A stretch of DNA of 54,853 bases, the filler included, from Sphacelaria rigidula (taxonomy: Eukaryota), in the NCBI GenBank assembly GCA_964200075.2. It is 4 parts of 4 records of this genome, joined end to end, with 100 filler letters (N's around TTAATTAATTAA, not from the genome) between each part and the next. Parts side by side here need not be neighbours in the genome. Positions count along the whole stretch, not along the records: positions 41,218 to 54,853 come from CAXNAA020002755.1; 3 more parts are not named here. One strand, 5' to 3'. Position numbers and translations under genes: made by a program. Under the pieces are notes generated by a model. The model searched no databases. It had not been told where the DNA came from and worked only from the letters and a program-made list of their open reading frames with translations. Of the stretch, positions 1,088-54,853 are shown one piece after another (the first letter of the stretch is position 1; each line of letters opens with the position of its first letter).

Positions 1088-3140
1088 AATGGTTCAACAC
1101 ATCGACATCGGTCATGGAGAAAAGGGAAAGTAGGCAATAGGAAGTCGACTATAACAGGAAATCAACAACGTCAGGACCTTAATATCGGACGAAAAAGAGG
1201 CGTAAGACCGCCCTGCTTTGTTGTTGCTCTCAGACAGCCATATCACCCATTCTAGACACAGAAGCTATGCCAGGAACGCTGCACGCCTGCAAATACAATG
1301 CGGTGATTGGACGCGCGATTGAAATAAAAGGGTGGCCGGACCTATTTTTACACGCCAGACCGCATGTTTCACACGTACGTCTAAAAAATTCGGATCCGAT
1401 GAGTCCGATGGGTCACGATCCGTGGGCTGATTTCGAATAACTCCTGGGACTCGACTTTTTTTCGTCTTTATTGTGCGAATCGGCTCGTAGGCCTCGAGCC
1501 AGTACGAGTCATGACTAGTCGGATGTGTGTAATGCTTACCCCACCAAGACTCTGCACATGCGACGTTGAACATTTGGGCCCTAGGCTGATCTGTGAAGTT
1601 CGTCGACTACATCGTTATGAGAGCTCGATTTACCACGTTCACGTGGGGAGAGTATTTTGTGCCCCGTTGAACGCGCATATCGGCAGTAGCGCAACTTTTG
1701 CTATTTTGTAGACTGTAGAGGGGAATAACTTCCACGTGAGCAACTCTCGACCACGTACCCACCACGTCGTGTCGTGACCCACACATTTTTTTGGGGTAAT
1801 TTTTGTGTGACAAATGGCAAAAATCCCAGTGGACCCAAAGATGTTATTTCTTTTCTTTACTTAGTTCGCGCCCTTTGCTGGGAATTTTGCGGAAGGTCGA
1901 TACCCATTCTGGGAAAACAAAAAAAGTGATCAGACCGGTTGATGGGAAGGCACGCGGTGCGACGACGATTTTGTAGCGACCAAGAAGTGTGGCTCTAAAG
2001 TTAAGCAGCATACACACCACACTACGGTATACGCAGCAGCGCGCACACCGCAATGTAGCTCTTGGTTGATGGGGCACCGTGTAATTCTTCGGGTTGGATC
2101 CAAAATACACTGAATGAATGAGAACCGATGCTTGCAGTAGCCATGAAGAAGTCAGTCACACAGACGGCGTCAAGATGAAGGTGCTTGTGTTTCCTCTCCG
2201 AAATCATGAGTCTTGGCGTTGCTATGCCCTACCGAACCCATTTCCGCGAACTGGAGCTTGTTTCACGTGGCAGAGCGAGAGAGAAAGAGAGAGATATCAT
2301 GAAGTCATTTGTACCCGTGCTTGGGCGCTTTACATACAGATGCTGGCAAGAGCGGGTGCTCATCGAGGAACCTCTTTCTTACATTAAGATGGACCCGGGG
2401 AACGCTCTAAATGAATTTCTGCGTAAGGTAAACTAGCTTCTGCAGTGCCTTGCTCGATCAAGTTACCGTTCGGTCTTTTTTTTTTCATCTTTCCTTCGTG
2501 GAACAAAATCTGCCCAAAACAAAAAACTGACCGACTCGCATCAGAACTCACTTTTTGCACAAATTGGGTCAAGGCAGAAATTCATATTCTGTGGCGAAAC
2601 GTAAGCTGCCAATCACTGCGCCGTTGCGGACAGAAGAACTTCGCCATTTTGAAGTCGACACACGACCCATCAACCACCGTTTTACGGAACTATCAATGCC
2701 CTATCGAACTCGTTCATCGTGAACACCTACCGCTCTACGACACCATATATCCCAGGCTTCAATACCGAGTGTCTACGAGAGGACGGTTTTCGGCACATCA
2801 CGCGCAACAACAACTCCGAAGCTAACCCAATTCGAACTTCAACTCTGTGCAGCCTAATATACGCTAGCAAGGCGGATCGCAGTCCACATGCTGCAATTCT
2901 CGACGTCCTCTCATCAAGAAGAGGGATGCTGCGCACGTGTCAAACACTTCATTCTGCAGGAATGGCGAAGTTTTATAGCCCGGCGTCAGCAGGCGCAAAA
3001 GTGCATTCCTAATTTTTCCTACCTTCCAACGACTTACTGCAGATCTACCCGACTATTCTACATCGCGAGACCTATCACGGTGGAACTTCACCCGTCCGGG
3101 ATGCATCGGCGGAAAAACTCAGGTCGCAAGTGAGAACGTC

Positions 3141-3242
3141 TCAAGCCTCCACGCCGATAAGCTTCAAGAGGTCAGCAGCATGTACTTGGACACTTCCTTC
3201 GTCCCCCAATTCGGGGTAAACAGCAACAGCCCCGGCAAAATC
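3141..3242 (-). CDS. cbbY: CbbY-like terminal exon (DFAGAVAVYPELGDEG...IGVEA*)
   Basis: CAG acceptor, TGA stop at 3143-3141. Confidence 0.9.
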   Translation of the reverse strand, partial: DFAGAVAVYPELGDEGSVQVHAADLLKLIGVEA

Positions 3243-13639: not shown

Positions 13640-13739
13640 NNNNNNNNNNNNNNNNNNNNNNNNNNNNNNNNNNNNNNNNNNNNTTAATTAATTAANNNNN
13701 NNNNNNNNNNNNNNNNNNNNNNNNNNNNNNNNNNNNNNN
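13640..13739. other. Artificial scaffold-joining spacer (44 N + TTAATTAATTAA + 44 N)
   Basis: Exactly 100 bp; central 12-mer has stops in all six frames. Confidence 0.97.

Positions 13740-26994: not shown

Positions 26995-27062
<68 letters not shown>
26995..27062. repeat. (TAG)22 microsatellite
   Basis: Perfect TAG tandem. Confidence 0.95.
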
Positions 27063-27084
27063 TTTTCTTGTTGACGTCTTGATC

Positions 27085-27245
27085 TACCATGTCGTTCTGT
27101 TCGACTTTTTTTTGCTCTTTCGTTTTCTTGAACGACTGTGTCAGTTTTGGTTTTCTTGGGTACGTACGTACGTCTATCATACGACCACGGCTGGACCCCT
27201 CGGGGGTCATTCAAAGTGCGACAATCGATCAATCGAATCGAATAA
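27085..27245 (+). repeat. Family D copy
   Basis: ATGTCGTTCTGTTCGAC ... GACCACGGCTGGACCCCTCGGGGGTCATTCAAAGTGCGACAATC. Confidence 0.75.
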
Positions 27246-27378: not shown

Positions 27379-27478
27379 NNNNNNNNNNNNNNNNNNNNNN
27401 NNNNNNNNNNNNNNNNNNNNNNTTAATTAATTAANNNNNNNNNNNNNNNNNNNNNNNNNNNNNNNNNNNNNNNNNNNN
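27379..27478. other. Artificial scaffold-joining spacer
   Basis: Identical 100-bp structure. Confidence 0.97.
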
Positions 27479-37700: not shown

Positions 37701-40147
37701 ACCTTTGATTGCGAGATGACCATTTCAATACCTTGAATATCAAACCCCCTCAGGTGAGCCATAGACGGACAACTGAAAACACGAGGGGGGGTTAGAGACA
37801 TATTCCGGGAGACATGCCCCCGAAACCTCCGAACAGGGAAGAAACGTGGCGAGTGAGTGGGGAGGCGACGCATGCTACTGTTATCCCCCACCGGATCACA
37901 GTTGTACAACCTTTTTGTCCAGAGAAATGCGTACAATCACACATATATGGATATACGCATATATACGTAGATACTCGGACGCTGCCTAAACCAGGAGAAA
38001 CGACTCTGAGAACTCCGACACACAACATAGCTGCTATTTCAATCACCAGAGACATATTCAGCTCTGCAGCCCTACGTAGTGGAGAAAGGGATGAAAATAA
38101 CCCCGCAAAAAACGTGAAATTGGCGAACACACCACATGCATGGCAAGTGAAAAATGCATAAAAAGGAGACAAAGAATAAGAGCGCAGGACAAAAAAAAAA
38201 GGAAAACACATTCAAAAACGAGCGCGGGGGTGGAGACTGCGCCGTGATGACATGACAGCGGTTCCGAACACCTAGAATAGAATTTTCACACGAAGCAAAG
38301 GCAACACCATAACACAAAGCTTGCGGAATCATCAAATGAAGAGGAGAAAAACACAACTCAACAAGACGGGAAGGATGCGTCTTATAGTGTTACCATAAAA
38401 TTTCGAACAAAGCACAAAACGAGGGAACATGGCAGAAAGAAAAAGAAAGAGAAAAAACAATAAGAATGTATCAAAATACCAAAATAAGACGATACTAAAG
38501 TATAGGGAAAGGGAAAACAACACAAAACAGAAAAAAAAACACGAGATAAGAGAACGCGTATGCTGTCTTGTCACCGTCTCATCCCAGCTCAACTCACCGA
38601 AGAGCATGAGAGTAAGGATCAACACGAACGAGAACGACTGCGCGGTGAAGATGTCCGGGATGGCCGTGCTGATCAGCAGCCCAATGCTCTGGCCCACGAT
38701 CACCTGCTCAGCAGCATGTCGTGTATCACCACAGTTGGCGGTAATAACTAGGTTGTGACTTCTTCAAACATCAAAAGCAGTGCACGGATGAAACAATTGT
38801 AGCCCGAGATGCATCGATAGGTAAATACACAAAACACACACAGGAAAGACACATACACCAGGCAGGAACAAGAGCAACGACAGCACGTGCACTGCGGCTG
38901 CGACAGCCTCAACAGAGCGTGAAAATGACTAAACATATTTTGGGGAACCACCCCCCCCCCACCCCTAACCCCCCCCCCGCCGCCGCCGCCTGCCGCCCGC
39001 CTGGCCGCCAGATGCATGAAAAAAAAGCAAATGGACAACGACGATACAAGGCAACGACTTCGTAACTTTTACCAAGTCCTCGGTCAGACTGAATCCAGCA
39101 GCCCACAAAACGATAAGCCTAGAACACCATATGAAGATGACCTACCCGGCACCCAAGGCCCTGAACCTGCTATTTGGAACACCACGCCCAACAACCTCTC
39201 CGTGAAGATCTGAATAGTACATCTTTCCCTCCCCTTATTCCCCAGATCGGGGGGGGCATTGTGTAGTTCTGTACTGTACTTACTAAAACACTGGTCGTAA
39301 ACCTTCAGGGCAGTACATACTCCAATCCTGGCAAAAGCGATGTCCATCACCAAGGCGTACCTACTCGTGAGCAAACCGTGTGTGTGTGTGTGTGTGTGTC
39401 GTGCGTGTTTTCATCCATCCATTCCAAGAGCCTGTCTACACCTTTCGGTGTATGTAGGCGCATCAGCCGGGATCACACAGGAGAAAGGTCAACGCAGGAG
39501 ATTTTTCTTCTTTCCTTACTCCACCTTCCTCCTGCTGTGCTTGCCTTCCTTCTTTATCGTGAAGTTTCGGTTCGGCGGTCCCTTTCCCCCGTCGATCATA
39601 AAGTCGAATGCTGTGTATCGAGGATATGGTCACTCTCAACTGTTTGGCACAATATGAGGAACAAGAAAAAAAAGTGTGACCCGACCGAGCTTCGAACCCA
39701 CGTCCCAACCGACACAAGGTTTCAACACTACCACCTAAGCCACCGGGGCGACCACCACCAGTGTATGTGTGCATCGTAGAAACGCCAAAAATGCCAGTCA
39801 CTTCACTCTTCCTCCATGCTTTCTCCTCGAATAACAAAACATGCTAATTTTTACAACATCGTGACTCGTTCCCCCCCCCTTCCCGTACTACTACCGCGGG
39901 TTGTCAGCACACAGTTTGAATGTCTCGCCTGGCCCATGAAGAGCAGGAGAAAAATGAAGAAGTGTCCCGCGTCCGCTCGCAGTCCCACACACCAGTACAC
40001 CACCGTCGCGAACAAAATAGGCGCCGCCGTGTACAGCCCGATGTCGCTCGTGGACTTCGCTAGGAAGTAGGGACCGACGCGATACGATCCGGTCGATCGC
40101 TCGCGTATCATCAGGCCTCGTTCCGGCGGGAACACTCGCATGCTCGT
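34642..40147 (-). CDS. ABC transporter G family (white-like), ABC2 membrane-domain exons, partial at both ends
   Basis: Exons 40147-39929, 38703-38598, 37054-37015, 34702-34642 splice to TSMRVFPPERGLMIRERSTGSYRVGPYFLAKSTSD...FFIFLLLFMGQ|VIVGQSIGLLIS...LMLFG|GFYVNSENIPDGI|EWLQYLSFLFYGFGGLLTNE: the F..ER....RER..G.Y...YFLAK, LFGGF and WLQYLS...Y......NE signatures of ABCG membrane domains. ATPase exons and last exon(s) not identified. Confidence 0.93.
37015..37054 (-). CDS. ABCG 40-nt mini-exon (GGFYVNSENIPDGI)
   Basis: CTAG acceptor, GTAAGT donor; phases 1/2 bridge the flanking exons exactly. Confidence 0.9.
38598..38703 (-). CDS. ABCG exon (VIVGQSIGLLISTAIPDIFTAQSFSFVLILTLMLF)
   Basis: GCAG acceptor, GTGAGT donor, 106 nt. 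Confidence 0.92.
39378..39753 (-). mobile_element. tRNA-headed SINE, family E, with (CA)n tail
   Basis: Minus strand head GGTCGCCCCGGTGGCTTAGGTGG (A box) ... GGGTTCGAAGCTC (B box); (AC)n tail; body homologous to 13387-13639. Confidence 0.8.
39929..40147 (-). CDS. ABCG exon (TSMRVFPPER...LLFMGQ), probable GC donor
   Basis: GCACAG acceptor; CAG|GCGAGA donor gives a clean phase-0 join; 219 nt. Confidence 0.88.
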
Positions 40148-40405
40148 CTGTGCGAGACCGGTAACACGGGGTAGGGGCGCGGGGGGTCAAGAGGGAGGGA
40201 GGTGGGGAATCATGGAATTCAAGGACAGGTCTGTACGTAACAATGTGTTGCGGAAGCATGCCCAGGAGGAGAGCAGTGTTTGGCTCGTGGGTGGTTATTT
40301 CCTTCACAGTTTTCCCGAAACTTTCACTGTAAATATCCATCTTCCATCGGCACGTATTGTGTGCAAAGGACGCTGTTTGCGCCCAAGCTTTTCATTCACC
40401 TGCTC

Positions 40406-41117: not shown

Positions 41118-41217
41118 NNNNNNNNNNNNNNNNNNNNNNNNNNNNNNNNNNNNNNNNNNNNTTAATTAATTAANNNNNNNNNNNNNNNNNNNNNNNNNNN
41201 NNNNNNNNNNNNNNNNN
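41118..41217. other. Artificial scaffold-joining spacer
   Basis: Identical 100-bp structure. Confidence 0.97.
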
Positions 41218-41604
41218 CCATGGGCCATCGCTTGTGGATGGCACCCGTGGTTTATGAAGTCAGTGCAGTCACAGTTGCAGAGTGAAAGCTATGGTTCATA
41301 CACACATGAATTTCTGTGTCGGTGAAGGTCGGAACCGATATGAATCTGTTAACATTTTACTCAACGTCCAATTCTTCGTTCCACTTTCTTCTTCGGCACA
41401 TTGTGAGCAAAAACGCGTCGCAGGCTTAGCACCTGTCCAGCTTTTTTGTCCATGCTAATGAAGGAAAAATGCAAGGTCACATTTCATTTCATGACACAAA
41501 CTCGATAACGCAAAATGCTTTCCCTTTGTTAGGTGATGTTCCCTCTGTTCTGCCAATGTGTGTGCGTGTGTGTGTTTTTTTTTTCATCCTATTATTTTGC
41601 ACAG

Positions 41605-42159
41605 GCTGGGGCATTAGAAAACGGTGACGCAATCGCTGTATCCGACGCTTCCGCTACCCCGTCGCCAACATCTGAAGCACCGCTGGCTGCAAGTGACACT
41701 GCCGATGATGCCGGTGACAGCAACAACAGCACACCATCGGCATTAACAGCAGCGTCAACAACGACAACGACAGCAACAGCAACAGCAACAGCAACCACCC
41801 AAGGGAAGCAAGAATCTGATCGCGATAAAGGCGAACATGACAGGAGCAGGTCAACCACCATAACGAACGGTAACAACGGCGACGATGACAAAGACGACGA
41901 CGGAGGACGCGGGACAATCGAGACCGCTTCTTTTTCCAACCACAACGACAAAAGTCACCAGGCAATCGCGGAGGGAAGGAGTGGCTCCTCGGCTGCTTCT
42001 CGAGACTCAGCGTCAGTCGTTGGGAAGTCCGATGTTGGCCAGGAAAATGGCGAAAGCGGAGTAGCAGAAACCCAGAGAGGGTTCCTGGAGGGGCAGCGAC
42101 GCGAAAGGGTTCGAGCCCTGACAGCATTGGTGGTGACAACGGCTGCTGAAGTTCTGCAG
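41605..42159 (+). CDS. PKS exon: acidic S/T/D-rich linker and start of ACP (..[18 protein letters not shown])
   Basis: TTTTGCACAG acceptor, CAG|GTGATG donor, within ORF 41533..42192, phase-0 join to ACP exon. Confidence 0.8.
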
Positions 42160-45100
42160 GTGATGATTTGGCCACGAGTGCGTGAGCTGTAGGAGAGTGG
42201 CGTACGGGCAGTCGGATATATGCACTTTTTTTGTCAAGGAAGGGGGGAGGGGGATGTCCTTCGGTATGCCTAACGAGGCAAGGGCAACAAACGACTCCTG
42301 GGTGACCAGCAAGTAACCGCAGACATGTGTCCAGAAGAACATTACGCGGGGGCGAGGGAAGAGGAGATTTCCTGTGTGCTTGACAAGACTGGATACATAG
42401 CGGCAGGGTACATGGGCGTTGCGGCGAGTGTTGCGAGTAGACACGGACGTCCTCCCTCAATGTCTGTTCAACCAGGTAGCCACGATGCAGCATCTTGACT
42501 ACCGTGAATTACGGTGTACACACATATCATTCGTTAGTGGTTTGCCGCTTCTCCTGGGCATCACGTCTGCGTGTAAGTTGTCGTATATGTTGGCCATCGT
42601 GAACTTTTTGCCGTCTATTTTCGTGTTAATTTGATACATCAATCTGCACAAATAAATACCCTCACACATGCATCGCACGCTTCCGTGTCGCCATATTTCA
42701 TGGTCATGTTCCACACCAGGGATCCACGATTTCGCCCGATCAGCCCTTGTTCGACGCCGGCTTCGACTCCGTCACAGCCGAAGAATTTGTGGGGAGGCTG
42801 CAGGAGAAGCTCGTCACTGGCGGCTGGGTAAAAGGTGCGGCGGCCGTGGCGGCGGCGGCTGGTGAAGAGGCTGATGAAGAAGCGGCGGCTGCGGCCATCG
42901 TAAATAGCACCACCGTGTTCGATTGTCCCACCGCGCAGCACATGGCGGAGCACATCGAGCGATCTGCTGCGGGAGACATTGTGGGGAGTAGGTAAGTTGT
43001 GGAGATTCCACTCGTTCATTCGTGTACTGGGTGATGCTTTCTTGACCCCTCCCCTGTCTCCGGAAGAACCCATAGCCGCGAGAGAATCGATTAACCCGTC
43101 TATCTTCCCCGGTGCATGCCTGGCATGTTGGTATCAAGATTTTGGGATGAAAACTCTCGCAGTCGGTCGACTTTCTGTACACTGCTGCATTTTTTTTCCC
43201 CTTTTTTGCCAACCCTCGTTACCGTATTTTGCGGATGGTGAAGACTAGGAGCAAGAAGATTGGTTTACTACTGCCGGAATTCAAAACTATACAGTGGGGT
43301 CAGATTGGAGTTTGGATGTAACGGTTTGATCACCGGGGGTGCGGCGGAAAACGGTGCATGCAAGACGTACGTGACTTGACCTGTTGATTGTTTTTTTGCA
43401 TTTTGATTGTCTTTTTGCATCTGGTTTTGTTTGTGGATCCAGATTGACGGTGCTCCACTTCGGAGAACACTGTGATCGCTATATTTTTTTTTGCTGCGAC
43501 ATGAGACAAGAGAAAATGAAACCACAGAATCACCCGCCTTTCCCGATGTAGAACCAACCGGTCGTGAAAACCTGAAAGACAAAAACTACACGTATTTCTG
43601 CCTTTTTTTCCTTCTTCTTTTTTTCCTTTCTTATCGTCGAATCAGCGTGTTGCTGTCGTACAGCTGTTATTCGTAAATTGTTTCAAAAGTGAACCGCCAA
43701 CCTTTCGTTTACAAGGTAGCACAGCGTTCGTTGATCTTGCCAACGTCTTGACATGAAGACATTTTTTTTCACGGGTAATTGCACAACCGTTTCCCAAACA
43801 TCCGCACAGCTAATCTTCCCGTGTACCTCCTACCCAACAACTCAACACCCCCAACAACCCAACACCCAACGCAACCACACCCAGTGCATCGGCCGCTGGT
43901 GGCGCAGGAGCATCTACAGCAGCTGTCGAGGGCGACGATAACACCTCCCTTGCAGTGGTGGGGATAGCTTGCCGTTTCCCCGGGGGCTGTGACAGCCCAG
44001 AGGCGTTCTGGGACTTCCTCAAGAAGGGGGTGGACGCCACCTCGGGAGTTCCATCGGAGCGGTGAGGGGCTGGATGGGAGCAGCGGGGGTTGTGTGGAAT
44101 TGGTGTTAGGTGTTGAGGAACGTGTGGTGTCTTTGATGTGCCTGTATGCATCGTTCGCCCGGAGTCGTTGACACAAGGTCGTTGACGCGAAATTGCGAGG
44201 AGGAGGGTGTGTGTTGTGTGCCCGTTCGTGTTATACTGTAATAGCATTTTTGCTTATTTGAGTTATTTTGACGTGCTTGTCGTCCACAAAGTCAACGCGG
44301 GCGTTCATCATGCACGGCCAGGCAAATCTGTGCGCATACACACGTAGTGATAACACAGTATATTGGAACATGCTCACCCATCGGTACTCGCCCCTTCAAG
44401 TGCATTTTGTTGGTACAGCGAGGGTCCCAGTACAGTGCGGTTCCTCTAAAGTTCGGGGTCCCATCGCAGTGCGATCTACAGCACTTGCCACAAGTCGGAT
44501 CCGCTATACAAACATCAAGTAAATACACCGTAAACGTATAATGCGGGGTCCCACCATCGTCCGGTCATGCCGGGCTGACGACCCACCGCGCTGTACTTGG
44601 ACCCTCAGGGTATTGTCGAGCCACGCAGGTATCGGAAGGTGTTGATATGTTCGTACACCGTAATTCACACGTGAAACGTGCGGAAGTCAGTCTTTGTGGG
44701 GGCGAGCTGTCTCCGCGTCGGTATCATGGACCCTACGGAACGTCTTGGAAGTCTGCTTTTTTTCTGAGTTGGAGACTCTTGGTCCCTCCGATCTCCCTCT
44801 GCCCCCCTTCCCTCAACAACTGACGGAATGTGATGGATGAACCAGCTGGAGTGCCGACGATGAAGAGGGAGACAAGGCTGATGATGGCAGCGTAACCCGG
44901 GGAGCGTTCTTGAAAGATGGCGCCGCGTGGGCCTTCGACAGCACGTTTTTCGATATTCCTCCGGCGGAGGCTCGCTGCATGGATCCTCAGCAGAGGATTA
45001 TGCTCGAGGTATAGTACTCTGACGGTGCGCGCAAGCGCTGGGAGGGATTTATTCTGTACAGTGAGTACCCACAGGTAGAGCAAGTGAGGTCTTTCCCATA

Positions 45101-48100
45101 TCGGCACTGCTTCATATACAGGAAAAATATCGGTTTTGTCGTCTGCACGTGGGTACTGTAGGTGGCAAATATCCTGTGATCCTGTGGATGTGACATTTGG
45201 CTTTGTGGAATGAATCATCACATGCAATATGTGCGCTGTGCGATTAACGTTATCGACCTTCTCTCGACAAAGCACAGCACAAAAAAGTGTGTTTCACATT
45301 CTGACACCCGTCCTTCATGTTGAAAAGTGAAATAAAACGATTCAATTGCCGTCTGAGATTGCAGACGAGAGAACCAGATATTGCGCAAGGAGGAATCAAT
45401 ATTCAGTAATAGGTCAGATAGTGATCGATCAAGCACTCATCCACCTTCATCATGTACGCCAGAGGGTTATGGTGGGGTAGAAACGCAGCTTGTGATACGG
45501 TGTGCGATCGATGGGCGGAGGAGTTGATTGAGCGTGTCGCACAATTGACTCCTTTACCACGAGTTCAGTCGTGAACACATGGGTAGGTGCATGCAAGGTG
45601 AACAAACGCAAGCAGAAGCATTGACTACGAGGAAACTTCCAGAAAGTGAGAAGAGCGAGAGAGATGGACGACAGAGGAGACGAACAGTGTACACTGACCT
45701 GGGTGCCAGGCATAGAATAACCCCGAACTCGATACATAGACAGAGCAGGCCCTGACTGGGAGAATTAGGTACAAGCTCGCGCAACATGCAAGACCATGAG
45801 GAAAAGGTGGAGCTCAGCTATCTGGAGGCCGTGCTATTATTTAGTAAATCTTAACCGCGAAATCTGAGGAAAGAAATCCCAATACAAGTACAACGCATGC
45901 GAAAAATGAAGACAAAATGCGAGGGAATATGACCAGGGGGGAAAAAAAAAGGCCGCCGGTCGAAAGCACCAGCCTTACTGGCTGATTGTCTCGAAAAATG
46001 AATAAAGCAACTTCACGACAGGGGAATAAGTACGTGCGGCTCTGATCTTGGGGGTAGGTTCCGACATTTCACCGCCCCTGATTGGGAAAAAAAAAGCGAT
46101 CATAGGTTCTCTTCCACTGATTGTCGTTAACACCGTCCCTTTCGCTATGCTACACTGGGGAAGTTTGTTCGCGTAGCGTTGTCACACTATGTTACCGACT
46201 CGTGTTGCACAATAGTAATAGCAATAGTCCATCACCTCACCACAAACAAATTTGCTTTTTTCAGCTTCCTTTCATATCTCGGGCATTCATCTGCCTCACT
46301 TTTTCATCGTCCCGATTGCTGCTGCGAACATCCGCAATGCGCAGGTTGGATACGAGGCCCTACATCGCGCCGGAATGAACAGGGAGAGTCTTCGCGGCAG
46401 CAATACGGGGGTGTTCGTGGGTGCTTGCGGGACCGACTGGGCGACTAGACTTGCGGAGGGGGCGGGTCCACCAAGGGGAACGTACACAAGGTGTGCTGCC
46501 ATAGTCCATCTCACACCCCCCAAAACGTGTTTGTTCATGTTACAGGATCTAAATATCCACTGCACCGTATGTGTCATGTTCTAGTGCTAAAGAGAAGGTT
46601 CAGGTACACTCGAGCGATTAAGGATCAATTTCAAGCACAGTACCGGTAGCGATGTACAGTACACTGCCCCAAATACGACTGTCGGGTTGGCCGAGGTGGA
46701 AGGATACCGTTGACGACTTCAAATCCAGTACATGTATATACCTGAATATATCTACTCCCCCGCCCCCTCCGCTCGACAAGTGTGACAGCGAACTTCGCAG
46801 ATACAGACACCAGTTTGTCTCGTTTCGAAACGTCCTCGAGAAGTCATCGTCGCTCATCACATTCGCCCACAAGGAGTGGCTATCCCGCGCGCACTTGTGT
46901 TGAGTTGCTGTCGGGCCTCATGTTGCGGGCATGTTGCGCGTGGGGGAAAATACGTGGTTTGCACTTCACGATGCGAACGCACTTTAGTACGTACGCTTAT
47001 CGCCATTGCTATTGACAGCAGTGCAGTGCAGTACCGTGCAATATTCTAGAACGATATTCCGCAGCTACCGCTTTCACCCCGTAGAACTCGGGGAAGCTAC
47101 TTCTCGGGTTTTTTCTTGGCGGATCTCTTCTTGTTTTCATTTTTGTAACATATTGGGTGATGACATTTTTTCTTCATAATTAGGATGCAGCCTCAGAAAA
47201 AAAGTTGACGAGGACTCTCATGTCTTGTAAAGAATAGCAAGGACGGTGTTGGAAAGACGAGCCTACGTCTGTGACCACGGGTTCGAGAGATCGGACTAAT
47301 GTGCGTAAAAAAAATGATAGTAATAGAATAATATAATAATAAAACCGCTCTATGGGATTCGACATGTGCACGCAAAATAGGCTGAAGAAGAGGCTGTCTG
47401 CACCCTCATGTTTGAGCTGTTCGTCTCACTTTACATTGATGCCATCCATGCTTGTGTTGACTTTTTTTATTATTATTTTTGGTTACGACTTAGTCTGCTA
47501 TGTCGTTCTGTTCGACGTTTTTTCTTCATGTTCCTTCTTTTCTTCAGAGCGTGTTTCGATTTCGTTTTTCTTGGGTACTTCTATCATGAGACCACGGGGG
47601 GTCAGTTCAAGTGCGACAATCAAGCAATCATTCGTATCCTGTCAGCTCCATCGCGCGTTTCAGTGGCGTACTTACTCCCTGCACCGGAGGAAAAGCTGTT
47701 ACAGGTTGATTCCTCGACCCTACAAGCTCATATCGAGGAAGTGGGCTTTTAGGAAGCGTTCGCCGATCACCCTCACGAACCCGTTCCCCCCCGTCCCCTC
47801 CCCCCCAAACTCCATGTCTTGTAACACCCTTTCTCTGCGCACCGCGGAATTAAATCCCAAAACGAAACCCCAAGAGCAACCCATTATCGTTTCCCACGCT
47901 TTCATACACGTTTCGTTGTGACAGCACCGGCGCTGCGTCTTCCATGCTGGCGAATCGCCTGTCCTTCGCTCTTGGCACCGTGGGGCCCAGTCTCACGATC
48001 GACACGGCTTGCTCCTCGTCTCTCGTGGCGCTCCGGGAGGCTTGTTTACATCTAAGGGCATCTGCGGCTGGGGGAAGACCCCGGGCGGCGTTGGTGGGCG

Positions 48101-51100
48101 GAGTGAATCTGCTGCTGTCCCCGGGCCCTTTCGATCTCTTCTCCAAGGTACGTTTTTAGCTTTACTCGTTTTAATATCGTACGTTTGTTTCTTCTGTGTG
48201 CTTGCGGTTACTTGTATGTGTTCGTTTTTTTTTCGGTGTACAGGATCAAACCATTTTTTGAAGGGAATGTAAAGTAGTAGCGTGTGTCTAGTTCGAGAGT
48301 GCCGGTTTCGAACGTTCGGCAACATTTTTTTTCCGCTTTACAAAAAGTGGCCAGGCAGACAAACAAACAAAGCCACCTCGAAACGACGAGATTTACAATC
48401 TCTACAGTGAACGATTTCGTTACACTTGAGGTGGCAGTTTTTTTCGAAATTCCAGTGTTGTGTAAAAATCCGAACACTTGTCGAGACCTTCGACGGTAGG
48501 GGTGCACTTTTTTTGGTCCAAAAGTTTTCTGAGGTTGCATAGTAAGGCCCAGGTGTTCGTCATGGAGAGGCTCCTGAAGTGCAGAGCCCCAGAAGAAAAT
48601 GTGCACCCGTACCGTGGAACCATTCTGATGTAAGTCCGAAGATACGCACTTTACATATAGAGACACTTCACGGCTTTTGTGCGAAATTCTCGGGCCCAAA
48701 CCAAACTGCATGCCCCGAAATTCGCCCCCGCCGCCGCCCCCCCGAGTGCGCAGGATTTCCCCCCTACCTCGACAATAGAGCTATTTATCCCGAGGTTACA
48801 TTTTTTCCGTCCGGATGTTTTTTGACGCGAATGACTCCTCCGATGATCATTTTTTTTTTTCAAGGTAAAATTGTTTTTTTGTCGACACAAGAAGAATCTC
48901 ATGATGACGTATAATTTTCGTTGCTTTTTGAGTTTTTTTGTTTTTGTTTATTGCTTTAGTTTTGAGGGTCCAAACACATTCGGCTGGTGTAGTGGAGAAA
49001 ACACGTGGCTTGGAGAATGTTGAGAAGGCGGCCACGAAGGCAATCGTGATCCTTTCACTGCCAACGGATAATTGCGGCTGAGTTACCCGGGCGACATGCT
49101 GTAATCTTCTCCGAGCATGTCTTGGCCACATTTTTGTCCAGCAGGCTAACCCCTGTAATGCCTGGCCCTCTAGTTGGGTTTTCGTTGGACGGATTCATAT
49201 CAGGCGCGTGGTAAAGATGTAGCCCGTACGCAACAGCAGGAAGCTTTGGGGTCGAGAGGCTGGTGCCACGCGTCCCCATTCCGTCATCATTTGTAGAGGG
49301 CATGAGCTGCGACCAGAGCTCATTAGCTGTGGCGCGCGGAGGCCACCATGAGCGGTGATCTTCGCCAGCAGTATTCATGTATAGAACGAGAATACCACAC
49401 GCGGTACACAGCCTGCGTTCGTGTCCATTATTGTTTTAGTTTGCTTTTATTTTGAGGTCTCAGAAGGAGGTGCTACAAGAACGCTTCGACTTCATGTGAA
49501 AAATGGTGGTGACGGGGCTGGAAATGCAAGCCTACTGTACGTTTATGACCGCGGTGCGAGAGATCGGGCAAACCTGCCAAAACAATACTGCCACGACGAT
49601 AACAACAACTACTATTACTACTACTACTACTACTTGTAGCGTCATTGTGTGTTACCTCTTCTTGGGTGGCCATGTTACTGTTCGGCCACGACGCTGCCAC
49701 TCGGCAATCCCACGCTAACGTCTAGAGCTAATCCTACTTGCCATAAACGATATTCTTTTAAAATTCCCGTTCGCGCCCGCGTCCAACCAGCGTCCGTCTA
49801 CGCATAGCCTATAGGTCATTTTCTGGTATCGAAGGTTTGAACTTCCTCTGCCTCCCTGAATTATTGGACCGTCAGCATCGAGAATATAAGGACCAATTAG
49901 CACTGGTGCGTTTCAAGGTACCACATGGAGCACTTTCCCGCACGTGACGATGGAGCGGAACCTCTAGCGGATACCGTATATTGACTCTAGTATGCGTTGA
50001 ATACAGTACCCTGCGCGATGCAGATCTGATGCTACAGTATAGCAACCCGTGTGCAACGAAAAATAGGTCATACTACAAGTACAGTCCCTTTGTTTGACGC
50101 TTGTTCCCCCCTCCCCGCGCGCGCGCCCTTGAATGTGGTGGCTCTTGCGTGAATCATCGGCGGCAGACGGGTATGCTGGCTCCCGACGGTCGATGTAAGG
50201 TGTTCGCCGCCGGTGCCAACGGCTACGGCAGAGGTGAAGGCTGCGGTGCTGTGGTGCTGAAGAGGCTGGAAGATGCAAAGGCGGACGGGAACAAAATCTT
50301 GGCTGTCATCAAGGTAATGTTGTCCCATTGATGGTACGGGACGAGTCCGTACTACAGCTTCGAGGGATGAAGCCATCTCTCTCCGGGTACCTGCCCCCAC
50401 TTTTTGATATCGACGGTCGGATCAGCACTCCCTACCCCCGTAGACATCCATAAAGTTTTCTTTCTACTCACGTCCTCGCGCTTCTAACAACCGGAACCGT
50501 TTCTGCCGCTGAAGATACCACTGCGGTCGAATCTGTCGGGCTTTGAATCCACCAAGTTCGCTCAAACCGGTCGTTGGTGTGCATCATCTTGACTACCGAG
50601 GCACGGCAATGTGCCCCAGTGCGTGTGAATATGTGACGGGTGGGGCTGATTTTGAGGAAGTCGTTGGGATGGCATTGTCGCAATGCATCGGCGCGGAATC
50701 GCATCTTTTTGCTCAGTTTGACATGACGGGGAGCACCCTGTGTGTGGATTGGTATGCGGACCATGAACGTTGTTCATCACACTAGTTCCTCAGTGTCCCT
50801 GTGCAGCAGGTGCGGAGGTGATGGACGTCATGATTGGACTGCATTTGTCTCTTTCGAGATTCCCCTGCAGACGTCGCGATTTGCTTTGACCTGCTTTCAA
50901 GATCTTCGCGCTATACCACGCCCTTCCCCCCCCCCCCCCCCCCCCCCCCCCCGCCCGGCCACCCACGCCGACGCCCGCCTACACGCCCATCCGCNNNNNN
51001 NNNNCCCCCCCCCCCCCCCTTGGATTGAAGTAGCTCGTCGGAACAAAAGCATTACACCAGTTGCTTCGCGCTTTGCACAACTCCTTGCTGCGTATATCTC

Positions 51101-53313
51101 CTTTTAGGGAACGGCTGTTGGGCACAACGGCCAAAGCGCCACCCTTACTGCACCAAACGGTTTGTCGCAGAGGGCCACCATCTCCGCCGCGCTTCGAGAC
51201 GCAGGGGTGCCCCCCAACCAGGTGAGTTGCGAGAGCTGTTTTTGACGAGAAGAGCATTCACGTGGATGCATCTAGCAAAACTCGATGGGCGCCGATGTCG
51301 AAAGGGGTTGTGGCCGAATCGAGAAAAAGGAAGGGGAGTCGATTTTTTTTTTTTTGTATCCATGCGTGTTGCTGTATGTAAAATGGAAGCACCAAATGCT
51401 TCGGGTCTTGAGAAAAGAGGGCATTGAGTCGGAAACGGCCCGGCGTTTGGTGATTCCCATGTGTTTGCGGCCGCCTTTGCGTGTGTGTGGGAGTGTGTGT
51501 CTTTTGTCCACGGCGAAATATATCCGGCGTTTGGGGGTTTTATTACCGTTCTGGGCAGCAGCACAGCATTCCCGTCGCGATTCAACCCTTTGGATACCAC
51601 ACAGCTGCGTGCATGTTTTGCAAGATATGTCCCGGACTATTCACTTCGTTTTGGATGTGAGGATTGGAGATGTATTCCGTTGGCGCGCAGAAATGAAGCT
51701 GCTTGCCCGCACGACCCTATCTCCTCTGCAACAGGGGCGCTCTGCTGCCCACACAGGGTTGTCCAGCACAAACAATGATGATATTGATATCAACGACCAG
51801 AGTCCTGTCGAACATGTAATGGTCTTTCTCCATTCGGGTGCGCATGTTGCGGGTGAAACAAGGTGACGAGGTACCCACACGTTGAGACCCGGGATGCCAC
51901 GTTGACCCTGGATCGACCATAGGGAAGATTTGAAAGGAAACTGACTTGGTCAAACCAAATTGCGCTAGTGAGGAAGGGTCTGGGGAATCACTTCATACGC
52001 GGTATGCTTTGTCGTTTGAGGGGGGGTGTTACTTAACAGAGAAGGCATTCTCAGCTGCAGCGTCGATACTACTCGTTTCGGAATTAAAGGTCGACCGGAG
52101 ATATTGTTCCGGGAAGAGGTCTGGTCCCCGAGGGGTTGCCGATTACTAGTAGATCGGGAGTGTCCGTACCATGATGTGTGCATTCTGGCGTTAGTGGTTT
52201 ATCGTTGGCAATTTATCTGCCTCGTTTTCTATGGAAACATTAAAGTACATGCACGTACTTGCAGGTGTGTCGGGATGAACCAAGACACGTGTACCCCAAA
52301 CATTAAAAGAGTCGGATTCTTATGGCACCGCATTCTTGAGCCCAGAAGTGTCGACGATTCGACCGTAAAACCAAGTATGGCGGACTGATTTTTTGTGTCG
52401 TATCGTATCTTGTTTCTCTCGTTTCGGAACTTCAATCACAGGTGTCGTACGTGGAGGCACACGGAACAGGGACGGCCCTGGGCGACCCGGTGGAATTCGG
52501 AGCGCTCGAGGCTGTCTACGGGAAGAACAGGTGAGACGTCTTCCGGTCGCGCCGTCCGCTGGTGCTGGTACTGCCCCATACCTTGTTATGATCCGGCCAC
52601 GCTTGATGATAGGTCAAATGTTGCATTTCTGCCTCTTTGGAGTTGAAATAAAACGTTTGTTAGCTTATCCGATGTCTTTTTCTTTCCTCCCCGTCGTTGC
52701 TACTGTGTCGATTATTTTCAGGGTTGCGGAAAGCCCGTTGGTCATCGGAGCTGTAAAGAGCAATATTGGGTAAGTGGGGACCCTGTAATTCGTATATATA
52801 TCTTCATTAAACACCGCAGACACGTCATCGGGTCATCATCCATTTGGGTTTGCAAACTCATGGTTGAACTGCGACTTTCTTGGCTTTGGTTGCGCTTGAT
52901 TATTTCTACACAGCCACAGTTTGACGACTAGACCCCCGTATGATTTAGATGATCAGCTGAAGTGAGTGCCTTGTGTTGTGGAGGCTCAACAGCGCTCTTC
53001 AAAAAGCTCTCGAGAAAAGACAGCATGATCTCCACTGTTGAGGCTGGTCCCCAATGCACATCCCTACATAGAGACGACCAGAGATGCACATAAAGGGATA
53101 AACACGGTGCCTACTTGTTGTTATTCTTGTCTTCCAGGCACCTGGAGGGCGCGGCAGGCATTTCCGGCCTCATCAAGACCATTCTCGTTCTCGCACACGG
53201 GGCGGCCCCGCCCAACCTGCACGCCTCTACGAGTGTAAACCCCAGAATTGATCTCAAGGCTCTGCCGGCTGTCCTCCCCGCGCCAGGAAAACTGACTCGT
53301 CTGTCGTCAACAG
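41605..53313 (+). CDS. Type I polyketide synthase, internal part: low-complexity linker - acyl carrier protein - ketosynthase; 11 exons, about 703 aa visible, partial at both ends
   Basis: Exons 41605-42159, 42720-42991, 43885-44061, 44846-45008, 46345-46490, 47925-48147, 50167-50313, 51108-51221, 52442-52530, 52722-52769, 53138-53313, all GT-AG and frame-consistent. [20 protein letters not shown] motifs [86 protein letters not shown]. Confidence 0.96.
42720..42991 (+). CDS. PKS exon: ACP core ([23 protein letters not shown]...)
   Basis: CCAG acceptor, GTAAGT donor; GxDS phosphopantetheinylation motif. Confidence 0.9.
43885..44061 (+). CDS. PKS exon: KS N-terminus ([39 protein letters not shown])
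   Basis: CCAG acceptor, GTGAGG donor; manual translation. Confidence 0.93.
44416..44610. mobile_element. MITE with about 21-bp TIRs, possibly Tc1/mariner-type (TA flanks)
   Basis: GAGGGTCCCAGTACAGTGCGG (44420) vs CCGCGCTGTACTTGGACCCTC (to 44606); TA on both sides 4 bp further out. Confidence 0.6.
44846..45008 (+). CDS. PKS KS exon (W...RGAFL...[25 protein letters not shown])
   Basis: CCAG acceptor, GT donor; MDPQQR motif. Confidence 0.93.
46345..46490 (+). CDS. PKS KS exon ([32 protein letters not shown]...)
   Basis: GCAG acceptor, AG|GT donor. Confidence 0.93.
47497..47631 (+). repeat. Family D copy (PKS intron)
   Basis: ATGTCGTTCTGTTCGAC ... GAGACCACGGGGGGTCAGTTCAAGTGCGACAATC. Confidence 0.72.
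47925..48147 (+). CDS. PKS KS exon with catalytic Cys (DTACSSS)
   Basis: ACAG acceptor, GTACGT donor. Confidence 0.95.
50167..50313 (+). CDS. PKS KS exon ([34 protein letters not shown]...)
   Basis: GCAG acceptor, GTAATG donor. Confidence 0.95.
50995..51004. other. Intra-scaffold gap (10 N) inside a PKS intron
   Basis: 10 N flanked by poly-C; KS reading frame is continuous across this intron. Confidence 0.9.
51108..51221 (+). CDS. PKS KS exon ([38 protein letters not shown])
   Basis: TTTTAG acceptor, GTGAGT donor. Confidence 0.93.
52442..52530 (+). CDS. PKS KS exon with first catalytic His ([19 protein letters not shown])
   Basis: ACAG acceptor, GTGAGA donor. Confidence 0.95.
52722..52769 (+). 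CDS. PKS KS 48-nt exon ([16 protein letters not shown])
   Basis: TTTTCAG acceptor, GTAAGT donor. Confidence 0.93.
53138..53313 (+). CDS. PKS KS exon with second catalytic His ([29 protein letters not shown])
   Basis: TTCCAG acceptor; 3' boundary at ACAG|GTGTGT is the best candidate but less certain. Confidence 0.9.
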
Positions 53314-53392
53314 GTGTGTACTGTGTACGGCGTCGTAGCACGCTCGTGCCAAGTCCAGCATATCATTGTAGAGGGCGCATGTGGATGTTTTT

Positions 53393-53536
53393 CACACCCT
53401 GGATAATGACGATATATTACATTGTCACAAAGTGTATTGCGTACAGTTTGGAATCTGTTGTCTATTCCAATAGACGCAATAGTCGATACCGTACGCAGTA
53501 CACTTTTTGGCAATATAATCTTTTGTGCAGCGTGTG
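53393..53536. mobile_element. hAT-type MITE, same family as 30826-30963, opposite orientation
   Basis: CACACCCTGGATAAT ... TTGTGCAGCGTGTG; perfect 8-bp TSD ATGTTTTT. Confidence 0.85.
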
Positions 53537-53874
53537 ATGTTTTTATAGTCGAGGGGCAGCTTTCATTAGACCGGTGCTATTCATCAGTAATTTCATACAG
53601 ATCACTCCATGATTTCATGGACGCATACAATATTACATGCGTACCGGGGAAATAAATTGTCTGTTTGTTTGTGATCTCTTGCTTCAGTAAATAATATATA
53701 AATAATATTAGTGTTGGAGTCATACTGGAAAGAGCGGTCCCTCTTGGTGCTCAGTTCACATTAATATTGGTGCAACTATCGGTCTACACAAAACAACCTG
53801 TTTTCTGTGATGGTACCGTTGGGACTACAATATCTTATAGAGCGCTGCTTTTGGAAGTATCGGTAGCATTTGAT

Positions 53875-54133
53875 CACACGTCGGACAGATCATGATCTGT
53901 CTGAAAATTACTTCTCCTCAGTATAGTGATCCGGATCATGACCCGTATCATCTGACCCCACTTTTCCATGTTCACTCCTAACGGTGCCGGACGCTGAGCA
54001 TGCCGAGTAGTGCAAAGGTTGCGCTTTGGCTTTACTGACTCCGCTGTCACATATTTTGTGTTTTTGGACCAACGGACTCGAGAGTCTTCTTTCGTAAGTT
54101 GTTTCAGACAGATCATGATCTGTCCGACGTATG
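53875..54133. mobile_element. hAT-type MITE (259 bp)
   Basis: TIR CA(C/T)ACGTCGGACAGATCATGATCTGTCTGAAA; perfect 8-bp TSD CATTTGAT at 53867-53874 and 54134-54141. Confidence 0.92.
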
Positions 54134-54749
54134 CATTTGATATATGATGGATCATTGCTTGGTGTTCGTCGTGCGCAGTTTACATTCGTGTTCTCTCACC
54201 TCTGAAGGTATTGTGTGTGTGATGTCGTTCCTCCTATTCTGGACGCCGGTCTATACCAGTGAGGAGATTATATTGATCGCAAAGCGTGTGGATGACTGAA
54301 CCAACTCTGTACGTTGACCAAATCAGAAGTGGCAGATGCCCTCGCACAGTAGGAGCTAGGAGAGCTTCTCTTGCTGGCCGTCGTGCCGCGAAACTGATTC
54401 CGGAAAGGAATAAAAAAATCGTTGTCCTGGATCACAGCTTTCCCCCCTCAGCACTTGCTCCAATAAGAAAGACCAGACGCAATTAGTACGGCAGATTGTT
54501 TTCCTCGGTGCTTGGTATATGAACCCTCACGTATTCCTCCGCCGCTTCGGCCTGGCTTTCCCCTCGATGGGGTTGTTCTCGGTTGGCGATGACGCTGTAA
54601 AACACACCTCTCACTGCGTGAGCGAGCCAACCATGTTACCAATTGTTTTGCGCGCTTGCGTGTTTTTTGCAGTAATCATGATGATAGTCAAGCTAGATCA
54701 TATTGTGTGGGGGGGGAAGACCTCAACTCCGCGCAATCGCGATGATCGT

Positions 54750-54853
54750 ACCACGTAGTGTTTCAATAGTAAGGCACCCAGGAGGCAGTGTCTAAGCCGT
54801 GACTGTCTCAGGAAGTGGCGATACCAGACAAGAAAGCAACTCATTGTAGGCTG
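54750..54853. repeat. Family A copy truncated by window end
   Basis: GAGGCAGTGTCTAAGCCGTGACTGTCTCAGGAAGTGGCGATA matches 29622-29665. Confidence 0.7.

Follow-up and report, generated by a model that had tools for sequence, protein, structure and literature searches.

What kind of enzyme is encoded by an intron-rich type I polyketide synthase (PKS) gene in a brown alga, and what could it make? To our knowledge, nobody has followed up the type I PKS that was reported for Ectocarpus in 2015. Work on brown-algal polyketides centres on type III enzymes, and the available excerpts of the 60-genome Phaeoexplorer paper mention polyketide synthases as type III only. We analyzed a 54,853-nucleotide window from Sphacelaria rigidula that consists of four fragments, separated by artificial spacers (N44-TTAATTAATTAA-N44, as seen from the N runs and by direct reading). 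The gene lies on the fourth fragment (Table 1). We put a probability of roughly 0.75 on the reading that the contig encodes the ACP1 and KS of a nuclear gene, both spliced and expressed, that is the counterpart of Ectocarpus EsiPKS1, a cis-AT type I PKS primed by a fatty-acyl-AMP ligase (FAAL).

Table 1. Features of the Sphacelaria contig (positions count along the whole window).
Feature	Position	Strand	Length	Content	Splice joints or other evidence
Fragment 4/4	41218..54853	.	13,636 bp	One entire Sphacelaria rigidula (brown alga) contig	
Exon 1	41605..42159	+	555 nt	Low-complexity linker rich in T/A/D/N/S (about 160 codons), followed by first helix of ACP	Acceptor pairs with an upstream exon beyond the contig; RNA-like contigs match from 41604 and continue upstream
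Exon 2	42720..42991	+	272 nt	ACP core, then Ala/Glu-rich insert	PF00550, 4.3e-08; joints in RNA-like contigs, 42159/42720 and 42991/43885
GFDS motif (exon 2)	42759..42770			Predicted phosphopantetheine serine codon, 42768..42770	
Exon 3	43885..44061	+	177 nt	ACP-KS linker and KS start	PF00109 positions 4-40; joints seen
Exon 4	44846..45008	+	163 nt	KS	PF00109 positions 41-96; joints seen
Exon 5	46345..46490	+	146 nt	KS	PF00109 positions 95-126; joints seen
High-copy dispersed repeat (intron 5)	47133..47924	.			X5 read depth; short matches in fragments 1 and 2
Exon 6	47925..48147	+	223 nt	KS active site	PF00109 positions 145-217, 4.3e-19; joints seen
DTACSSS motif (exon 6)	48001..48021			Catalytic Cys codon, 48010..48012	
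Exon 7	50167..50313	+	147 nt	End of KS N-terminal domain	PF00109 positions 210-252; joints seen
Exon 8	51108..51221	+	114 nt	KS C-terminal domain	PF02801 positions 6-46; joints seen
Exon 9	52442..52530	+	89 nt		PF02801 positions 42-74; joints seen
EAHGTGT motif (exon 9)	52454..52474			His codon, 52460..52462	
Exon 10	52722..52769	+	48 nt	Microexon (16 codons); KSNIG of KSNIGH, Gly codon interrupted by intron 10	Joints 52530/52722 and 52769/53138
Exon 11	53138..53313	+	176 nt	KS end; second catalytic His codon, 53139..53141	PF02801 positions 90-118; donor 53313/GTGTGT leads to an exon beyond the contig; RNA-like contig matches stop at 53313 and the contigs continue
Start of intron 11	53314..54853	.		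Repeat-rich, no recognisable exon	

From open frames and GT/AG sites, we modelled 11 exons on the + strand (41605-53313). They sum to 2110 nt (703 codons, none of them a stop), and all 10 introns are GT..AG. The spliced translation contains each of the expected motifs once: GFDS (aa 199), DTACSSS (aa 464), EAHGTGT (aa 604), and KSNIGH (aa 641). The original prediction was of 11 exons that join without a stop into linker-ACP-KS with a Cys-His-His triad, and of a KS that is spread over at least 9 exons; the model bears this out, with the KS in exons 3-11. The gene had been annotated before, as an unnamed partial protein (CAM9330329.1). The database protein P0001 (540 aa) lies inside our spliced translation and is 100% identical to it.

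Pfam matches were found in 9 of the 11 exon-bearing segments. They are colinear, from PP-binding through positions 4 to 252 of the N-terminal KS family to positions 6 to 118 of Ketoacyl-synt_C. (Pfam gave no match for exon 1, which is linker, or for the 20-aa segment with exon 10.) In the whole P0001 protein, PF00109 matches at positions 4-252 of 252 (7e-78), PF02801 at positions 1-118 of 119 (9e-42), and PP-binding at 4e-07, so both halves of the KS are complete and colinear. The catalytic residues C307, H446, and H486 of P0001 are invariant in an alignment of 5 sequences. The region before the KS is a carrier domain, given its PF00550 fold and the serine in GFDS. Among solved structures, the best single-KS match by sequence is the KS-AT didomain of CurL from the curacin pathway (PDB 4MZ0; E 4e-118, residues 131-530), which suggests a KS fold of the cis-AT modular type. 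CurL differs in being a bacterial, mid-pathway module without ligase priming.

The gene is spliced. In each of three RNA-like public runs (X1, X2, and X3), one contig spans all 10 splice joints at exactly the predicted bases and without a single mismatch, while a DNA run from the same organism (X5) has 0 of the 10 splice joints. (X1-X3 come from one study, and their RNA status was guessed by the tool and is not on record. X1-X4, whose RNA status is likewise guessed, contain 0.17 of the words.) The spliced contigs are 6915, 10263, and 12545 nt long, and the transcript of the gene is apparently 12.5 kb or longer. Beyond the fragment, the transcript contigs go on for at least 2321 nt on the upstream side and at least 8113 nt on the downstream side. 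By arithmetic rather than direct observation, 2321 nt fits one FAAL domain and a 5' UTR, with no space for another module.

The expectation that the remaining domains lie outside the fragment also held up: the transcript contigs run past both ends, and tblastn with the Ectocarpus relative P0004 as the query found no further PKS exon in 53314-54853 and none in the other three fragments of the window. The predicted FAAL, AT, KR, and ACP2 of the Sphacelaria gene lie beyond the contig.

A further claim was that the introns carry the same repeats as the other fragments. Three non-simple BLAST matches agree with this: 47468-47629 to 27058-27234 (69%), 47535-47627 (which overlaps the first match) to 4620-4731 (72%), and 53392-53536 to 30964-30826 in fragment 3 (77%, E 1e-26). 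But the other 9 of the 12 rows between fragments are 30-57 bp long and mostly resemble simple repeats. Read depth in X5 is 27,000-175,000 in two bins at 47133-48042 (these take in the beginning of exon 6) and 1e4-1e5 in four bins at 53048-54853 (exon 11 falls within the first of these), versus about 60-85 elsewhere. Intron stretches at such depths imply that the introns carry high-copy elements of this genome.

We then placed the KS in a phylogeny. In a tree of 56 rows, 11 rows form a clade with SH-aLRT support of 100: two from brown algae, four from Chrysoparadoxa, two from Eimeria, and three from P0121. A FastTree run with 177 rows recovered these neighbours again, with lower support values (86, 49, and 32). 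The brown-algal KS thus groups with eukaryotic microbial KS, in a test of a protist (SAR) type I PKS clade, and not within one bacterial group. The gene has a eukaryotic (SAR) KS ancestry and is neither contamination nor a recent transfer from bacteria. This matches the earlier view of a resident nuclear algal gene, as do the Sphacelaria rigidula contig and the introns.

The nearest KS relatives (55-56% identical) are proteins of Chrysoparadoxa australica. These type I PKSs (P0139, P0023, and P0035) are also stramenopile nuclear genes in the same clade, and P0139 begins with AMP-binding-ACP-KS. They differ in having two or more KS along with DH domains, which makes them multi-module reducing synthases. 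The KS domains of an apicomplexan protein, Eimeria P0224, fall in the same clade with support of 100 (P0224 was compared by its KS alone), but apicomplexan type I PKS and FAS proteins are giant multi-module enzymes. In Cryptosporidium, CpPKS1 and CpFAS1, ligase-ACP loading units are the rule.

Sphacelaria belongs to the Sphacelariales and Ectocarpus to the Ectocarpales, which are different orders of brown algae. Across this distance a type I PKS gene is conserved: a protein from Ectocarpus sp. CCAP 1310/34 (CAB1118032.1, our P0004) is 75% identical to P0001 over 540 residues and is the sister of the Sphacelaria protein in both trees, with support of 100. The ACP of exon 2 is 56% identical to the Ectocarpus ACP, and exon 6 has 79-85% identity to three other brown-algal proteins. 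According to Pfam, P0004 has the C-terminal part of an AMP-binding domain, then ACP, KS, and AT. Its residues 1-264 score best against FAAL families (FadD32-like, 1.7e-41; PRK12476, 1.1e-38) and more weakly against a CoA-ligase family (5.2e-27). The NCBIfam FAAL matches are under the curated cut-offs because P0004 has only half of the domain. The AT scores best against fabD, a malonyl transferase. A caveat is that the P0004 model is cut at both the N and C termini and is mis-modelled. Among proteins of 992-3157 aa, a search with the ACP-KS of P0004 gave no full-length brown-algal orthologs (the matches listed were crowded by multi-KS bacterial proteins), and neither did a search with its FAAL region among proteins of 3158-5000 aa.

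EsiPKS1 (Esi0520_0008) of Ectocarpus siliculosus was predicted from sequence by Shelest et al. in 2015 as the "first type I PKS in a macroalga" (PMC4661987). Its listed domains are AMP-ligase-ACP-KS-AT-KR-ACP, with one KS and a cis-AT, and it is truncated (PMC4661987, supplement file 2 row). We take P0004 to be the counterpart of EsiPKS1 because no type I PKS other than EsiPKS1 is listed for Ectocarpus (PMC4661987); this pairing comes from that count and not from a comparison with the EsiPKS1 sequence. (A literature search for "Esi0520" gave no match.) The Sphacelaria gene shares with EsiPKS1/P0004 the order of ACP and KS, the KS motifs DTACSSS and HGTGT, an intron-rich nuclear brown-algal setting, and, presumably, a ligase-type loading domain before the ACP. 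It differs in that only ACP-KS is on the Sphacelaria contig, in the Ala/Glu-rich insert in its ACP, and in the KSNIG microexon (exon 10), whose equivalent is absent from the P0004 gene model. By sequence, we classify the Sphacelaria gene as a member of the brown-algal EsiPKS1 orthologous group. The family had already been described from sequence in 2015, and what is new is this Sphacelaria member of an uncharacterised kind of enzyme. Several parts of the original prediction are borne out here: the closest kin is known from sequence rather than as a characterised enzyme, and the Ectocarpus relative (FAAL-type-ACP-KS-AT), along with transcript contigs that extend both ways, agrees with an ACP-KS that links a loading unit to a module of a larger synthase.

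We consider it very improbable that the locus is a pseudogene, a bacterial contaminant, or a type I FAS. In favour of such readings, the contig is short and the gene leaves it at both ends, and a type I FAS was the first annotation of the Ectocarpus gene (PMC4661987). Against a pseudogene, the 703 codons are stop-free with catalytic motifs intact, the identity to Ectocarpus is high, and the spliced contigs match the exons at 100% identity. Ten spliceosomal introns, a GC content of 0.61 in exons versus 0.49 in introns, and the eukaryotic KS clade argue against a contaminant. As for an FAS, DH and ER are absent from P0004 and from the published EsiPKS1 string, and the enzyme appears to be primed by a ligase instead of being self-starting. 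(These absences and the ACP preceding the KS also speak against an animal-type type I FAS.)

How would the EsiPKS1-like enzyme work? The likeliest course is a single C2 extension of a long-chain fatty acid, with reduction of the product. The FAAL-type domain at the N terminus, beyond the contig, would adenylate a long-chain fatty acid and load it onto the phosphopantetheine arm of the ACP (exons 1-2). The acyl chain would then be transferred to the KS cysteine (exon 6), and the His-His pair of the KS (exons 9 and 11) would decarboxylate malonyl-ACP2 that had been loaded by the downstream AT. The resulting 3-ketoacyl chain, two carbons longer, would be converted by the KR to 3-hydroxyacyl-ACP. 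The ACP and KS in this scheme come from the window, the C-terminal half of the FAAL-type domain and the malonyl-type AT from the Ectocarpus relative only, and the predicted KR-ACP from the published table only. We infer the fatty-acid starter, the single extension, and the presence of the same outer domains in the Sphacelaria gene.

Some 3-4 kb on the downstream side of the transcript contig lies outside the assigned domains, so more than one extension is possible. The gene might then be the first module of a larger assembly line that makes a longer reduced polyketide, as in Chrysoparadoxa, whose proteins are its closest KS kin and have two or more KS (one of them after a similar AMP-binding-ACP-KS start). 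Shelest et al. also wrote of a "multimodular organisation" for the truncated EsiPKS1 (PMC4661987). However, EsiPKS1 is listed with one KS (PMC4661987), none of the brown-algal matches had a second KS, and the 8.1 kb downstream must hold the AT and inserts, KR, ACP, and 3' UTR, which leaves room for at most about one small module more. We regard this assembly line as improbable, and slightly more so than the hydrocarbon-forming enzyme that we consider next.

The fatty-acid-extending enzyme could instead continue like the cyanobacterial olefin synthase (Ols), which has FAAL-ACP-KS-AT-KR-ACP followed by a sulfotransferase (ST) and a thioesterase (TE) (PMC3903477). (We confirmed the Ols domains with Pfam on Xenococcaceae L015:8132-16846.) We think it unlikely, though worth stating, that the brown-algal gene encodes such an enzyme. 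A C20 polyunsaturated acid would be extended by C2 and reduced, and the 3-hydroxyl would be sulfonated before a decarboxylative release. The product would be 1,6,9,12,15,18-heneicosahexaene from eicosapentaenoate (EPA) and 1,6,9,12,15-heneicosapentaene from arachidonate.

Several lines of evidence are consistent with this. First, the published EsiPKS1 string and the eight-domain Ols string agree over the first six domains. Second, both of these delta-1 C21 polyenes have been reported from brown algae (PMC10005330), and by our derivation their double-bond positions are exactly those expected when a delta-5 C20 acid gains C2 and loses CO2. Third, the major brown-algal hydrocarbon, 21:6 delta-1, builds up in Ectocarpus and Saccharina independently of FAP, with no 22:6 acid detected; the enzyme that makes it was called unidentified in 2026 (PMC13521276). 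The authors weighed three routes, none with a PKS, and the words "polyketide" and "PKS" are absent from the text of PMC13521276. An Ols-like route, if true, would account for the lack of any accumulating C22 acid precursor. Fourth, the 8113 nt past the KS has space for about 1000 further codons after KR-ACP. Finally, a sulfotransferase and a KR module occur together in a PKS described from Emiliania (PMC7073580); excerpts of that paper do not link brown-algal PKS to ST-TE.

On the other side, no sulfotransferase or thioesterase was seen in the brown-algal sequences. We searched 1.84 billion representatives, which include few brown-algal proteins, with the Ols ST-TE as the query. There were 45,207 matches, 1311 of them with E <= 1e-30, and among the best 150, which we inspected, no protein looked brown-algal and none was conspicuous by low complexity. 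In the 25 strongest rows among these 150, the KS was at most 47% identical to P0004. Ten matches were looked up, and those with names were from Pseudomonas, Myxococcales, and Kofleriaceae. (A Logan contig, P0453, was considered as a eukaryotic ST-TE candidate and set aside, as we judged its R/A-rich composition to be like that of a GC-rich bacterium.) Also, an elongase together with an OleT/UndB-type enzyme would yield the same product.

The KS does not group with the Ols KS either: six of eight Ols KS domains form their own clade, apart from the brown-algal KS in the eukaryotic clade. Forcing brown-algal and Ols KS into one clade costs 71 log-likelihood units, with a borderline p-AU of 0.054 (the group was chosen after the tree was seen). 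KS grouping is a weak feature, however, in that two proteins with an Ols-like architecture, P0397 and P0473, also have their KS outside the main clade of Ols KS; the architecture occurs with KS of different lineages.

Compared directly, Ols and the brown-algal enzyme would share the first six domains in the same order (if the published EsiPKS1 string applies), FAAL-type loading, a malonyl-type AT, and one extension followed by ketoreduction. They differ in that the KS are 45-53% identical and in different clades, the first ACP has no significant match to Ols ACP1, the linker between FAAL and ACP is about 160 residues in Sphacelaria versus about 45 in L015, and the Sphacelaria gene is eukaryotic with introns. 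We call the hydrocarbon link speculative because the ST-TE end that defines Ols was not found. Still, our analysis gives an uncharacterised type I PKS a concrete, if doubtful, candidate role, the formation of the 21:6 delta-1 hydrocarbon. Speculatively, the gene and its Ectocarpus counterpart would be the FAP-independent hydrocarbon-forming enzyme of brown algae, a eukaryotic, intron-rich analogue of Ols. CRISPR is functional in Ectocarpus (PMC13521276).

The polyketide synthase (PKS) gene lies on the last of the four fragments (see the table), and we rebuilt it from stop-free segments and GT/AG sites. Its 11 exons on this fragment sum to 2110 nt and splice into 703 codons with no stops, which confirms to the base the original prediction of a linker-ACP-KS. 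Each of the ten introns is GT..AG and fits the consensus well, and the GC content is 0.61 in the exons versus 0.49 in the introns. Pfam matched 9 of the 11 exon-bearing segments, colinear with its profiles: exon 2 matches PP-binding, exons 3-7 match ketoacyl-synt N, and exons 8, 9, and 11 match Ketoacyl-synt_C. Exon 1 (the linker) and the 16-codon exon 10 had no Pfam match when searched singly. The motifs that were predicted to be intact (DTACSSS, EAHGTGT, and KSNIGH, the last interrupted by intron 10) each occur once in the spliced translation, as does GFDS. With exon 6 as the query, we found a 100% identical protein, P0001 (CAM9330329.1, "unnamed protein product, partial [Sphacelaria rigidula]", 540 residues). 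P0001 is contained in our translation, which is longer by 160 residues at the N terminus and by 3 at the C terminus. (Intron 7 holds a 10-N assembly gap, beside a proline-codon-rich CCN repeat; no exon is touched.)

Sequencing runs agree with these junctions. Four runs from one study contained 0.17 of the sampled words, which is near the exon share of the stretch, and DNA runs from the same organism contained 0.50-0.96 of them. In each of three of the RNA-like runs (X1, X2, and X3, all from one study and RNA by a software guess), one contig (lengths 6915, 10263, and 12545 nt) joins the exons across all ten introns at the predicted bases, and the spliced contigs differ from the predicted exons by 0 letters. 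In the DNA run X5, all 30 bins were covered and 0 of the 10 exon joints were present. It is hard to explain, other than by splicing, contigs without ten GT..AG introns that are kept in the DNA. The window's exons correspond to positions 2322-4432 of the longest contig, so at least 2321 nt upstream and 8113 nt downstream lie off the DNA contig. One assembled contig is no proof of a single transcript. (Extra short contigs from X1 and X2 end in GGCGGCGGCGG at position 42859, in the GCG/Ala tract of exon 2. These ends may mean that the GCG repeat encoding the alanines of the ACP insert varies in length or that the assembly broke there.)

We then placed the KS among its relatives. The set comprised 80 bacterial loci (the best 80 of 617 matching stretches), their extra KS domains, and the searched proteins. 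In a FastTree tree of 177 KS rows, the two brown-algal KS group with four Chrysoparadoxa KS (support 86), and two Eimeria KS and three KS of another protein, P0121, join them more weakly. A quick IQ-TREE tree of 56 rows unites these brown-algal, Chrysoparadoxa, Eimeria, and P0121 rows (11 in all) with an SH-aLRT of 100. By BLAST, the Chrysoparadoxa KS match at 55-56% and 390-431 bits, versus about 53% and up to 389 bits for the best bacterial KS. Together, the trees and the BLAST ranking place the Sphacelaria KS in a eukaryotic PKS lineage of stramenopiles and alveolates. Among solved structures, the best single-KS match was the KS-AT of CurL (4MZ0, 4e-118).

The depth of X5 is even, at about 50-90, outside repeats. 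It rises to 1e4-1e5, versus about 60-85 over the remaining contig, in two intervals with many loose ends and odd joints, which hold high-copy dispersed elements of the S. rigidula genome; these bins are mostly intronic but also cover exon 11 and the beginning of exon 6. The introns had been said to share repeat families with the other fragments. Direct comparison bore this out only in part, with three short, non-simple matches. Considering the ten spliceosomal introns, the even DNA depth, the intronic high-copy repeats, these matches, and the KS tree, we conclude that this is a resident host gene and not bacterial contamination, as was originally proposed.

Exon 6 is also 79-85% identical to three other proteins: P0002, an unnamed ENA fragment; P0003, a fragment from Hapterophycus canaliculatus; and P0004 (CAB1118032.1), with 1804 residues, from Ectocarpus sp. 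CCAP 1310/34. P0004 is 75% identical to P0001, and its domain order is AMP-binding (the C-terminal part only), ACP, KS, and AT. Its first 264 residues are most similar to FAAL families (FadD32-like, 1.7e-41, and PRK12476, 1.1e-38), with a weaker match to a CoA-ligase family (5.2e-27), and its AT scores highest against FabD. With partial or interrupted domains, the ligase and AT scores fall under the curated cut-offs. The gene model of P0004 is cut at both ends, and at residues ~880-902 it has 25 unrelated residues where Sphacelaria has an RNA-supported 48-nt KSNIG microexon. The missing microexon is probably an error in the gene model and not a sign of a dead KS. No longer brown-algal ortholog was found among proteins of 992-5000 residues.

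We take P0004 to be the counterpart of EsiPKS1 (Esi0520_0008), a gene with a type I FAS annotation that may be truncated and whose scaffold is small. The one KS of EsiPKS1 carries DTACSSS and HGTGT, and the predicted domain string is AMP-dependent ligase-ACP-KS-AT-KR-ACP (Shelest et al. 2015, PMC4661987). A table in O'Neill 2020 appears to list T1PKS for Ectocarpus, and the accessible text names none (PMC7073580). The accessible part of the Phaeoexplorer preprint mentions polyketide synthases as type III only, and a literature search for "Esi0520" found no mention. Since the published record is a description at the sequence level, this gene family is known yet uncharacterised.

The simplest reading, and the most likely one, is a fatty-acid-primed PKS with a single extension, because of the FAAL-like ligase, the carrier before the KS, the malonyl-type AT, and the published KR-ACP. 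The FAAL would load a long-chain acid onto the ACP encoded in the window, the KS encoded there would condense the acyl chain with malonyl-ACP2, and the KR would yield a 3-hydroxyacyl thioester that is two carbons longer. By arithmetic, the 2321 nt upstream have room for one FAAL and a 5' UTR. The 8113 nt downstream exceed the needs of the AT, KR, ACP, and UTR by ~3-4 kb, so additional C-terminal domains are likely. Overall, the interpretation of the gene in the original prediction is supported.

Those additional domains could be the ST-TE release unit of the cyanobacterial olefin synthase (Ols), which is FAAL-ACP-KS-AT-KR-ACP-ST-TE (PMC3903477); the published EsiPKS1 string matches the first six of these domains. 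(A complete example by Pfam, FAAL-ACP-KS-AT-KR-ACP-ST-hydrolase, is the 2905-aa protein from Xenococcaceae at L015:8132-16846.) The gene would then make the C21 hydrocarbons of brown algae. A 21:6 hydrocarbon, taken as the 1,6,9,12,15,18 isomer, accumulates in Ectocarpus and Saccharina. FAP knock-outs leave its level unchanged, 22:6 acid is not detectable, and the enzyme that forms the hydrocarbon is called unidentified (Cabanel et al. 2026, PMC13521276). That study proposes three routes, none with a PKS, and lacks the words "polyketide" and "PKS." By our own derivation, the Ols mechanism would convert EPA (delta-5,8,11,14,17) to exactly 1,6,9,12,15,18-21:6 and arachidonate to 1,6,9,12,15-21:5, and both hydrocarbons are reported in brown algae (PMC10005330). 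A sulfotransferase-bearing PKS reported from Emiliania (PMC7073580) is a precedent. However, 6 of the 8 Ols KS domains cluster in a clade of their own, separate from the brown-algal KS (IQ-TREE, 56 rows), and forcing the two together costs 71 lnL units (a borderline p-AU of 0.054). KS ancestry is a weak criterion, as two proteins screened as having the Ols architecture (P0397 and P0473) have KS outside the main Ols clade; their placement suggests that the ST-TE unit has been joined to KS of different lineages. Searching 1.84 billion representatives, which cover very few brown-algal proteins, with the L015 ST-TE didomain (L015:15029-16846) gave 45,207 matches. Among the best 150 of these, none of the 25 strongest listed had a KS over 47% identical to P0004, and the ten candidates that we looked up were bacterial or without a name. 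We consider an olefin-synthase-like role unlikely. The main value of the S. rigidula gene is that it offers one concrete candidate for the open 21:6 question, which is accessible to a knock-out test in Ectocarpus.

Features of the window and their coordinates
Feature	Position	Strand	Remarks
Fragment 4	41218-54853		one whole small contig; carries the PKS gene
PKS gene, linker-ACP-KS part	41605-53313	+	11 exons
High-depth intervals	47133-48042, 53048-54853		X5
Assembly gap	50995-51004		intron 7
KSNIG microexon	52722-52769	+	48 nt
Artificial spacers (44 N, TTAATTAATTAA, 44 N)	13640-13739, 27379-27478, 41118-41217	none	separate four ~13.6 kb fragments
ABC-2 type transporter membrane domain	39854-40186, fragment 3	-	PF01061, 1.4e-14, open segment
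Long open frames, 675 and 565 codons	17570-19594 and 23479-25173, fragment 2	-	GC-rich stretch, 0.59-0.62
HAD-like segment	4175-4666, fragment 1	-	borderline match, 5.6e-05

Features must not be read as continuous across the spacers. Neither of the two long open frames in fragment 2 matched Pfam at E 1e-4. The transporter segment in fragment 3 probably represents a single exon from a gene for an ABCG-type transporter.
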